Part shown: positions 3,729-18,717 of the stretch, in pieces
Position numbering within the stretch: position 1 is the stretch's first letter
Layout of the letters: the number at the start of each line of letters is the position of its first letter
Assembly (NCBI GenBank): GCA_951406725.2
Contig: OX597836.1
Span: 36,642,001-36,706,000, forward strand
Direction: 5' to 3'
DNA from: Octopus vulgaris
Lineage: Eukaryota
Length of the DNA stretch: 64,000 nucleotides
Translations under genes and position numbers: made by a program
Notes under the pieces: model-generated
Databases searched by the model: none
What the model saw: only the letters and a program-made list of their open reading frames with translations
Told to the model about the DNA's origin: nothing

Positions 3729-3904
3729 TATATATGCAAACAATATTCCTTTGAGTCAAGATATCCTGTGGAAGGCTTTCTTTTAACTCATTCCCTGTCC
3801 TGTGCATCACAAGTGATACGCAGAATATATTTCCCCGTTGTTCATGTATCATATGTGATACACATTCCTAATTTTCTTCAAACAACAGAATAATTGTGAC
3901 GTAT

Positions 3905-4130
3905 ATTTGCCATTGAAATATGGCTAACCCCTAAGGGTGGATGCTACTGTAGTTTGTAGTCCCAGGAGACCACCGCCTCCAGCTGGCTATAGACACACTT
4001 TCTGTGCCCTATCAGTATTTGCAAAGGGAAGTCATCCTTCCCGCCTTCAACTTATGATACACACGGACTCGAGTTTCTGGGTATTGACCCGTCATCGGCG
4101 TGTGACAGTCACAGTTGCCGATGAGCTGAG
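3905..4130 (-). mobile_element. Structured HHR-containing element, homologous to 17855-18180
   Basis: Shares the HHR stem II motif (tgacggg.caa.acccagaaac), cccttYgcaaata and the downstream hairpin series with the 17.9-kb unit. Confidence 0.7.
4060..4104 (-). ncRNA. Type-I hammerhead ribozyme motif, CCGAUGA core variant
   Basis: Minus strand: CACACG-CCGATGA-c-GGGT-caat-ACCC-a-GAAA-C-tcga-GTC-CGTGTG. Stem I 6 bp, stem II 4 bp, palindromic stem III ACTCGAGT, GUC site. Confidence 0.8.
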
Positions 4131-5390
4131 ATTTATTATTAACAGAATAATTGCTAAGAAGTAAACAATAATAATTTGTATTTCTTCGATTCGAAGCGAG
4201 GTTTTATGTGCGGGGGATATCAAATGTGCAAATAGACAGAATTATCTTAACAATGAGACAAAGCGTTATCTTGATTAAATATATCACTTAAAACCAAAGA
4301 AGCATTTGTTCCTTTCCTATCTTGAAATGCAACAGGAAATTATTTCCATTCAAATAGTATATATTTTTTTCCACTATACTCCACAACTTCTTTTCTGCTG
4401 GGCCAGATTTAATGCGCTTTCTTGTATTAGGAAAATTTAAGTATTCTAACTTCCTTTCGAAATTAACTGACGTATAATGACTAAAAGACGATAAAAGGCA
4501 GCAATCCCTTCATATCGAGTCAATTTTCTGCCTATTGTTTCTTTACTGCATCGATTTTTAAAAGGTTTACAGCATTCACCGCCACATATGGTGCGTTTTC
4601 AGAGAATTGTCTTCGTATAGTTTATTAGGTTCTTCAATTTAAATACAATTAAGACAAACATAATAAAAGAATATGAAAAGTACACAAGTTGGAATACAAC
4701 CTCTAAGGGATGCATCCAATAATGTGGACATATATTTTATAATAGCTTTCACTAAACACTAATATTTGGATCTAGAAAGCAAAGGTACTTTACAATGAAA
4801 TTTATCACGTATTCAATTGGGTAGAGATCTTATAACTGGTTGCGGTAAAGTAAATCTTGACCGAATGATTATTATTGACGTAGGGCAGTGAGTGTATGGG
4901 ACATATAAGCATACATGCAAACGTGAAAACATACATTCATACATGCATACATATATATATATATATATATTAGAAGAAATAAGGTACCCAGAAATTAGGA
5001 TGGATTTATATTTACAGACATTTATTTGGATATTACATGTTTTTACACATCATATAACGTATATCATATATATCATCTCCAAACCTTCTAATATATATAA
5101 TGCCATGATGTCGAAATTTATAGTATATGTTCTCTACGAGATATTTTATTGAGTGAAGAATTCTTCAAACAATGTAATGTTCAGCTCTATGGAATGCAGA
5201 ATTCTATAAAGAGTGCAACAATAAATTTTACTACTCCTCACAAGAATGCATTTACTAAGTCTCGAATAATTCTATGTACACATAAACACACACACACGAG
5301 AGCAAACACACATATATATATACACACACACATATATATATAGAAATGCATATGTATATGTGTGTATGGGTATGCATGCATGTATGTATA

Positions 5391-17005: not shown

Positions 17006-17854
17006 ACACTTTAGTACGACTGAAATTATATAAGTACATTTTGAGTAGGCTTTGTGTAAGATTGAATTTTGTTGTTGATTAGACGTTATTATGCATATCC
17101 ATTGAATACAACATCAATGTTGAAGTAAGGCTTAAGGATTCTTTGAATGGTAGTGAAGTGACAAATAGGCAACATTTTCATGACATTTGAGAGATGATTA
17201 AGTGTTGTTTCAATTATCTTTCACTAGTACTAATGGAAAGATACTTCGAAAGCATATCTAGTTATTCTGTGATTGCCTTTTCGGTGGCCTACACGTAGTA
17301 CTTAAATGATGTGTCAGTGGTTTTTAAGTAGAATAAGTACATTTCTCCCGTCTCCAGACGACAAGACGAGCAATCACTAATCGTTAGATTGCCATGATCA
17401 ATATAAACGTTGGACGCTTACAGAATCGTTAATACGCCGGACAAAATGTTTAACAGCATTTTTGTTCCGGTCGTTTACGTTATTTTTCTAAGAATGAACA
17501 GTTAGAGGAAATGCCTCAAATGGAATAGAGAAAGCAGTAATTTTCATTTGCAAACTGCGCCCAACTGATTTTTGGCTTGTCTTTTTTGTCGGAACAATTG
17601 GGAATGTATGTATGCTTGACCAAATCTGCCATACGGTTAAATAACAGAAGTTAAAGAATGGGACTCTACCTGGTGGTTTTGTCTGCTGAAATTATGCTAA
17701 ATTTTCTTTCAGTCACAGCGTTATGTTTTGAACAAAGAACGTGTTGGATAATGCAGGCCTCTCTACACATTATATATGTTTGTCTAATATATATATATAT
17801 ATATTAGTCCTGCTATTTGATAAATTCAATTTAGAAATTCAATATTTCTAATAT

Positions 17855-18180
17855 CGGTGACCAGTGAATAGATTTCACTGAAAATATATATATTTGCGAA
17901 GCCTTGGCAGGCATCTCAACTAGCAGGACTTACTATCCTGGACTGATGACGGGCAAGACCCAGAAACATGCATGTCTCTAGATGCAGGCCTAGCTGGTGG
18001 GGGTGCTTGCCTCCCCTTCGCAAATATAAGGACACAGGAAATGTGTCAAAGCCGACAGGAAGCCTCGATGCTCCCTAGGGCTAAATAGCGGTGATGTAAC
18101 TCCCTTTACGGGACTGTCACGTTGTGTTGACAGTATACAACCGCTCTATCGCTCCACCACTGCTCATGTCTCTCTGAGAC
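17855..18180 (+). mobile_element. Retrozyme-like structured unit flanked by a 26-bp direct repeat
   Basis: atttagaaattcaatatttctaatat at 17829-17854 and 18181-18206. The interior holds an HHR and a run of hairpins. Confidence 0.7.
17938..17981 (+). ncRNA. Type-I hammerhead ribozyme motif, intact core
   Basis: CTGGA-CTGATGA-c-GGG-caaga-CCC-a-GAAA-C-atgcat-GTC-TCTAG. Palindromic stem III ACATGCATGT; predicted cleavage after C17976. Confidence 0.88.
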
Positions 18181-18203
18181 ATTTAGAAATTCAATATTTC
18201 TAA

Positions 18204-18601
18204 TATAAGGAAAGAGATATAGATAAAGTCTTACAGCTGTTTCTGAGATATTACAGATATCCCTTCATCAGAGACGATGTGAGATTGTTAAATAGAGGTA
18301 AATATTTGAGTTCGAAATAAGGAATTATTATGGCAAGAGGGAAGATCAGGAATATAGAGGGAAATGAGAGACCGAAAGTAGAAATAAAATATACAATATT
18401 GTAGTTGAAGTTCCATTATTCTCCTTTTTCGTTCATATTTCTGGTTTCATCTTCTTATTTCCCTCCATATTCCCTTTCTCTTCCTTTTCTATAATAATTC
18501 CTTATTTCGAACTCAAATATTTACCTGTATTTAACCTTCTCACATCGTCTCTGATATCCCAGAAACGGCTGCAAGACTATATCTATATCTCTTATCTTAT
18601 A
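18204..18601. mobile_element. Inverted pair of HHR-bearing terminal repeats (Penelope-like)
   Basis: Arms at about 18204-18365 and 18455-18601 are reverse complements, e.g. aggtaaatatttgagttcgaaataaggaattattat / ataataattccttatttcgaactcaaatatttacct. Confidence 0.8.
18228..18275 (-). ncRNA. Type-I minimal hammerhead ribozyme motif, intact core
   Basis: Minus strand: GTCT-CTGATGA-a-GGGATAT-ctgta-ATATCTC-a-GAAA-C-agct-GTA-AGAC. Palindromic stem III ACAGCTGT, GUA site. Confidence 0.88.
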
Positions 18602-18651
18602 AATGTCCAGAAAACTCCTCACAGCTTTAGCTTTGTTATATCCTTTTGTCT

Positions 18652-18717
<66 letters not shown>

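Follow-up and report, generated by a model that had tools for sequence, protein, structure and literature searches.

The element under study lies on the forward strand of the window, i.e., the entire 64,000-nt stretch of DNA that was analysed. A complete monomer of 352 nt (17829-18180) with a GC content of 46.9% and without an open reading frame (ORF), its period being given by partial tandems at other loci, is followed by the first 24 nt of a next monomer (18181-18204), which end at a site termed 3' end A. Terminating there, the copy has a length of 376 nt and carries a single hammerhead. The subsequent AT (18205-18206) completes an exact 26-nt direct repeat (17829-17854 and 18181-18206), which the preliminary description had reported correctly and had interpreted as a target site duplication (TSD) around a unit of 326 bp. 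Neither the length nor the TSD was borne out, as the monomer measures 352 nt and 24 of the 26 nt already belong to the next monomer, forming its start, which is where most copies terminate. The absence of an ORF was confirmed, the longest ATG frame comprising 38 codons when read round the 352-nt circle. On the left, a (TA)n run (17787-17804), the likely insertion target, leads into a short inverted arm on the minus strand (17804-17820), which corresponds to unit positions 88-104 with 15 of 17 nt matching and had previously been overlooked. None of about 400 random 28-mers of the window without TA runs matched as well. No TSD is visible at this copy, the locus adjoining the TA run.

The type I hammerhead (17935-17983) consists of stem I (17935-17942 / 17977-17983), the CUGAUGA core, a 3-bp stem II, GAAA, and stem III. 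Its core was found as described earlier (CTGATGA at 17943-17949, GAAA at 17963-17966, GTC at 17974-17976), while the designation as canonical has to be qualified. The core residues C3 U4 G5 A6 N7 G8 A9, G12 A13 A14 A15.1, and U16.1 H17 are all present; the Watson-Crick pair at 10.1-11.1 is absent, stem II (GGG/CCC, 17951-17953 / 17959-17961) being closed by C17950·A17962 instead of G10.1-C11.1, a mismatch that occurs family-wide. A relative at locus L181 carries G-C at the same place, which fixes the register and thus assigns the C·A to 10.1-11.1. Cleavage is predicted between 17976 and 17977, after the C of GUC, which is a C in 54 of 58 copies; we take this cut point to follow from the established hammerhead numbering. 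The C·A may weaken cleavage. G10.1-C11.1 is called highly conserved in the hammerheads of Penelope-like elements (PLEs; PMC4209133, PMC8557442, PMC11167929), Perreault et al. rejected matches with such mispairs (PMC3088659), and Li et al. report cleavage for one of nine predicted frog retrozymes (10.64898/2026.07.22.740005). Our literature search returned no report of a C10.1/A11.1 mispair, which the work of Lunse et al. on PLE hammerhead variants may describe. The C·A closure suggests that strict hammerhead searches undercount such families. Within the window, Rfam gave no hammerhead match at the gathering score or at E values up to 5, its sub-threshold matches being confined to neighbouring DNA, where mostly miRNA hairpin models matched the inverted repeat alongside. 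A relaxed type I scan recovered four matches, three of them with a palindromic stem III, compared with 0.025 and 0 per window, respectively, in 40 shuffled windows.

Stem III of the copy is a 10-nt palindrome (17966-17975), and it is palindromic in each subfamily with a length of either 10 or 8 nt. The 10-mer yields -13.3 kcal/mol when self-paired and +1.7 kcal/mol as a hairpin, so that cleavage as a dimer is predicted to be favoured, in keeping with descriptions of metazoan and PLE hammerheads (PMC4209133). In the window copy, the active hammerhead lies 4.9 kcal/mol above the fold of minimum energy. Folding of 17855-18180 as linear RNA, a check proposed by the preliminary description, gave -123.2 kcal/mol (z -5.0, none of 100 shuffles being as good), and the circular 352-nt fold reached z -7.65 on the plus and -5.06 on the minus strand (40 shuffles each).

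The monomer-start hairpin (17831-17851) is paired in nearly all of 23 monomers without covariation, and its second copy (18183-18203) directly precedes 3' end A. The hairpin at 17862-17880 is kept in a sister family with two-sided changes. It is followed by an interrupted long extension of stem I (17889-18028), of which the outer 13 pairs are 97% paired in 58 copies with three pairs changed on both sides, and by two hairpin modules (18031-18082) in common with the sister family. A multibranch domain (18087-18164), closed by 18087-18096 / 18155-18164, holds two hairpins and an AC-rich loop hosting 3' end B (18140-18155; unit positions 312-327, mode about 320-321), the terminus of other copies. 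All nine arm pairs listed earlier are present at their positions. The AGCGGT/ACCGCT pair among them exists in this copy but needs G18143, which is A in 29 of 34 aligned pieces; it is paired in 113 of 138 cells, compared with 209 of 230 for the pairing of 18087-18096 with 18155-18164 in the same 23 monomers. Over the 58 hammerhead regions compared, pairing of stem I amounts to 95.7%, three of its pairs showing two-sided changes, and the middle pair of stem II switches between GC (33) and AU (13). Two-sided cells amount to 57 versus 18 in shuffles, a control that ignores kinship. In this alignment, stems II-III of the subfamily with the 8-nt palindrome (10 of 58 rows) are displaced, and part of helix 2 as well as helix 3 is drawn out of register, so that the whole-structure figures are understated. 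The hammerhead stems covary and the core is conserved.

A search of the genome (2.8 billion bases) with the unit yielded 2,489 first-look candidates, the best 40 of which were scored and showed 88-93% identity on many contigs. A 29-mer spanning the monomer junction has 320 exact genomic matches versus none for its reversed control, and one strict hammerhead pattern, which omits the subfamily with the 8-nt palindrome, has 106. The preliminary description had regarded a lack of other genomic copies as fatal to its reading; the many dispersed copies instead support an element of retrozyme type that is mobilised and non-coding and carries a type I hammerhead. Copies longer than one unit continue upstream into the end of the previous monomer, in register and with the 352-nt period, which identifies the 26-mer as terminal redundancy of a partial tandem. 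Such partial tandems reach about two units. The sampled copies, biased toward best-scoring ones and toward a pattern spanning junction A, mostly comprise one to two units, and no array beyond about two units was seen in the family of the window copy. Two hammerheads occur at few loci (L003, L037, L056), compared with one at the window locus, and within the 5' half of the hammerhead region, stem II included, nine positions distinguish the two units of L003. Monomers are about 94% identical within one insertion versus 87-88% between insertions, and nearest neighbours among 48 monomers have a median identity of 93.7% and a maximum of 96.6%. For the second subfamily, identities of the best matches range over 92-97%. 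Departure from the majority amounts to 0.154 at CpG sites versus 0.068 elsewhere. Judged from its sequences, the family is old and largely fossil.

Literature searches combining octopus or cephalopod with Penelope, retrozyme, or hammerhead ribozyme retrieved no report of such a family, the term "hammerhead" does not appear in the main text of the octopus repeat annotation (PMC13282606), and a metagenome pattern scan gave no match. In public sequencing data, pieces of the family occur under four organism labels; 8 of 24 runs were compared, on the level of contigs that carry no information on start, end, strand, or level. Contigs of putative RNA runs contain family pieces as well as the neighbouring repeat, with no back-joint listed. 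Two joints reaching back about one monomer come from one DNA-labelled and one unlabelled run and, owing to this origin, do not show circles.

For the analysis of insertion boundaries, four loci repeating an insertion were dropped, leaving 72 insertions with 94 3' ends. The vast majority of the latter (82) fall at the two fixed sites, 51 at A (unit positions 22-27 of the next monomer) and 31 at B, which are about 56 nt apart, and 12 lie elsewhere. Using the other subfamily as query, 18 further insertions added 25 ends (A 10, B 14, other 1). The 5' ends are variable and spread over the unit. In total 22 of the 72 insertions are two-armed, with inverted arms, and 14 of these combine A with B, as do six of seven in the further set. 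All 29 two-armed insertions divide into 20 A+B, two B+B, and seven with one end elsewhere, L102 among the latter being probably A+A. Under free choice, 20 of 23 A+B would have a chance near 0.0002 by hand arithmetic on a sampling that is not random. One locus hosts a four-armed palindromic insertion of the family (L103:895-2341) with ends in the order A, B, B, A and arms 95-98% alike. Among the 50 one-armed copies no shared non-unit 5' flank was found; the one pair sharing its 5' flank up to the junction does so by an inverted arm below the identity filter.

A TA run adjoins the scored 3' end in 21 of the 72 insertions. TSD-like matches of at least 10 nt were observed in 15 of 72, or in 12 after dropping three microsatellite-like cases, mostly with a length of 12 nt, while only 30 of 5,112 mismatched flank pairs reached such a match. 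True TSDs have 10-13 nt and differ per locus, a check that the preliminary description had proposed for its flanking repeats; the sequence of the 26-mer instead ends unrelated insertions on many contigs. Fixed 3' ends with an optional tail, 5' truncation, inverted arms, and AT-rich targets together constitute a PLE-type footprint. PLEs are described as forming partial tandems and inverted 5'-truncated copies with a tail of 30-40 bp and a microsatellite bias (PMC8557442). For a lizard PLE, two internal start sites of reverse transcription (RT) were found in vitro to bound the tail inside a stem-loop that is AC-rich, with AT-rich targets (PMC11167929). The tail of about 56 nt in the present family exceeds the published range and speaks against a full match.

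The machinery for such insertions is present in the same genome. A GIY-YIG search returned at least 148 matches among the best 150 of 6,136 candidates scored, many of them in identical open frames of 781 codons with RT and GIY-YIG domains. The 781-codon PLE protein P0001 combines both domains with a cysteine motif before the nuclease, which, read according to PMC8557442, points to the Neptune or Nematis clade. Two PLE families possess their own hammerheads with palindromic stem III, stem II of one of them having U·U at its base; both families terminate in TA runs, at two sites separated by about 30-35 nt. Neither blastn of 41 PLE loci nor profile search of 61 PLE loci detected a terminal repeat with homology to the unit. 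The possibility raised earlier, that all copies are terminal repeats of a PLE ORF, thus finds no counterpart among these 61 loci, and no flanking frame with RT and GIY-YIG was found at the window locus or as a shared flank among the 50 one-armed copies. The four best profile matches (L079, L099, and two in L181) proved to be separate retrozyme-type insertions near PLEs rather than homologous pseudo-LTRs (pLTRs), L181 being set apart from the ORF by a TA run. PLE machinery and footprint match the family; no parent or partner PLE was found among the 61 loci.

Several observations concern these PLEs themselves. A young family (L091-L098) encodes the open 781-codon RT and GIY-YIG frame in front of a long repeat-rich 3' region, L094 and L095 showing an additional upstream open frame of more than 430 codons, and its hammerhead has a U3-A8 core variant. 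The hammerhead of the second family (L099:3904-4200, L169, L172, L180-L184) has the core CCGAAGA or CUGAAGA, and the base of its stem II is formed by U·U. L099 also displays inverted arms, only one of which includes the tail.

Taken together, the locus very probably represents an old insertion of a dispersed, non-coding 352-nt type I hammerhead family, i.e., a non-LTR retrozyme, likely copied by the RT and GIY-YIG nuclease of a PLE. This reading builds on the observed family with its monomer length and head-to-tail junctions, on 3' ends fixed at two sites and 5' ends that vary, and on inverted arms, TSDs, and covarying stems. From these we infer a sequence of multimer transcription, cleavage, circularisation, and PLE binding, nicking, and priming, the first three steps being those of the published retrozyme model (PMC7229834). 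Source loci with at least two hammerheads would be transcribed, and the transcripts would be cut after GUC, probably as dimers via the palindromic stem III. Monomers might then be ligated into circles of 352 nt, instead of the ~330 nt expected earlier. A PLE protein would bind the 3' half of the RNA and nick both strands of AT-rich DNA, as derived from the lizard PLE (PMC11167929), and reverse transcription would begin inside the RNA at site A or B and proceed backwards past the monomer junction. For insertions with two arms, the start sites of the two DNA strands would usually have differed. The window copy would have been started at A, run for 376 nt, and been closed on the left by the 17-nt inverted piece. 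Having a single hammerhead, it cannot release a monomer alone and allows at most one cut of a read-through transcript. The 12 ends elsewhere, the two B+B insertions, and the probable A+A insertion L102 argue against a model restricted to A and B.

The circle step is evenly balanced, with about equal chances for and against. Templates could equally be linear multimers from tandem source loci, the hammerhead only trimming them or being dispensable, and for this step we rate that alternative slightly below an even chance. It fits the finding that hammerhead mutants of the lizard PLE left insertion in vitro unaffected, with unprocessed RNA as the main substrate (PMC11167929), and it accommodates the two different variants in tandem at L003, which a single circular template leaves unexplained. 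The identity of about 94% within versus 87-88% between insertions is as compatible with a shared source locus as with a circle and does not separate the two. In favour of circles, these have been demonstrated for the like-sized retrozymes of coral, mussel, and axolotl (PMC7229834), and the monomer folds nearly as stably closed as open.

Concerning the nature of the unit, it could also be the pLTR of an autonomous PLE, provided that the sample missed the copies with an ORF and that all observed copies are 5'-truncated remnants. Every insertion hallmark is indeed PLE-like, ORF-less PLE remnants are common (PMC4209133), and PLE fragments lie within 1.5 kb at six of about 94 family loci. Nevertheless we consider this improbable. 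All long copies extend into another monomer and not into ORF sequence, the closest cases are insertions into old PLEs (L106 splits one ORF, and L107 begins in mid-ORF, past the 3' end of the element), the sister family forms a pure 352-nt array, and the ORF-linked terminal repeats of the genome are AT-rich and unrelated, the unit being far more structured and GC-richer. Likewise, a pair at L102 lying 2.9 kb apart was inspected as a possible pLTR-ORF-pLTR arrangement and rejected as a duplication. Hardly credible are a unique insertion with a 26-bp TSD and the alternative that a hammerhead arose by chance in a tRNA-derived SINE or a fold-back DNA element. The identity of the two 26-mers is what speaks for a TSD, yet its 24-nt part is family sequence, and the family copies, their upstream monomers, and the 320 exact matches of the junction 29-mer against none for the reversed control refute it. 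A tRNA-like head is absent, with no B-box pattern in L002, terminal inverted repeats are lacking, and the core is conserved and the stems covary.

Within the preferred reading of a PLE-copied retrozyme, a more specific scenario can be put forward tentatively, although we regard it as rather doubtful. A 352-nt circular RNA lineage with a C·A hammerhead, of a kind dropped by strict pattern searches, might parasitise PLEs by structure alone, without pLTR kinship, a PLE dimer nicking both strands and priming cDNAs at A and B of one circle. The arms would then record second-strand priming, and the AC-rich multibranch domain would be a portable PLE-substrate signal.

Metazoan non-LTR retrozymes are already known from coral, mussel, and axolotl, and their mobilisation by PLEs was proposed in 2020 and supported in 2026 (PMC7229834; 10.64898/2026.07.22.740005). 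Cervera and de la Pena (2020) described units of 350-390 bp in mussel and 330/350 bp in axolotl (PMC7229834). The present family shares with them a non-coding unit that measures a few hundred nt, contains a type I hammerhead, and has a GC below 50%, together with head-to-tail junctions, TSDs above 4 bp, and PLEs in the same genome. In terms of the class definition, each unit contains a type I hammerhead, variant at 10.1-11.1, the head-to-tail period of 352 nt falls within 150-450 bp, no LTR pair surrounds an inner region, and TSDs of 10-13 nt occur in 12 of 72 insertions, whereas the tRNA-like head with B box of a tRNA-derived SINE is missing. The axolotl ribozyme HHR_Amex2 bears a U·U mismatch at the base of helix II, the counterpart of the C·A here. 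Differing from the described metazoan retrozymes, the copies mostly comprise one to two units and are old; the two fixed 3' ends and A+B inverted arms have no description that we found in the accessible text of PMC7229834. According to Li, Clavereau, and Pollet (2026), who covered 35 genomes of vertebrates, insects, and a coral, animal retrozymes are non-autonomous, PLE-mobilised PLE derivatives with dispersed monomers being common (10.64898/2026.07.22.740005). Their evidence is co-occurrence and pLTR similarity, ours is insertion anatomy with no homologous pLTR found, and the window copy lacks the two consecutive complete hammerhead units by which they define activity. With the pseudo-LTRs of EN+ PLEs the family has in common a palindromic stem III, 5'-truncated copies, partial tandems, inverted arms, the optional tail between two RT start sites, and AT-rich or microsatellite targets, in contrast to the missing ORF, the tail of about 56 nt, and the lack of G10.1-C11.1 (PMC4209133, PMC8557442, PMC11167929).

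New is the family, which is a further animal non-LTR retrozyme. Earlier proposals as to the mover of animal retrozymes drew on co-occurrence and on similarity of pLTRs (PMC7229834; 10.64898/2026.07.22.740005); in the present family the copies bear the PLE footprint itself, including two fixed starts resembling those determined in vitro for a PLE (PMC11167929). This footprint points to one RNA domain, with two start sites, as testable with purified PLE protein. The weight of the finding is limited by the class being known, the family being decayed, and younger material being at hand in the sister family.

The sister family was met at 3895-4135 of the window on the minus strand, in a 5'-truncated copy with a CCGAUGA core that ends at site B. 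It is 59% identical to the unit (alignment score 234.5 versus 92 for shuffles) and comprises 2,947 candidates with copies about 95% alike. Its stem I is different yet paired, the C·A and the downstream hairpins are those of the unit, and its site B is homologous as well. One array (L164, G000:C2:14084500-14091500) has the 352-nt period with nine hammerheads and units 98% alike; being young, it offers better material for cleavage and circle tests than the decayed window family.

A hammerhead family unrelated to the element (1,208 candidates) abuts its 3' end as a two-armed inverted insertion at 18204-18653, the arms ending at two sites about 50 nt apart. The motif is intact on the minus strand near 18277; its 7-bp stem II starts from an A·A at the base, and its palindromic stem III comprises 8 nt. 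Other copies of this family share several hundred nt upstream, and it may therefore be a PLE 3' end. The segments 17770-17804 and 18636-18670 form a 35-nt direct repeat, 89% alike. The left junction at 17770-17804 resembles the 3' end of the neighbouring hammerhead family followed by a TA run and is possibly the remnant of an earlier insertion. At L079:1-231, a relative of the retrozyme lineage combines the core UUGAUAA with A-U at 10.1-11.1, and its stem III is a palindrome of 6 nt.
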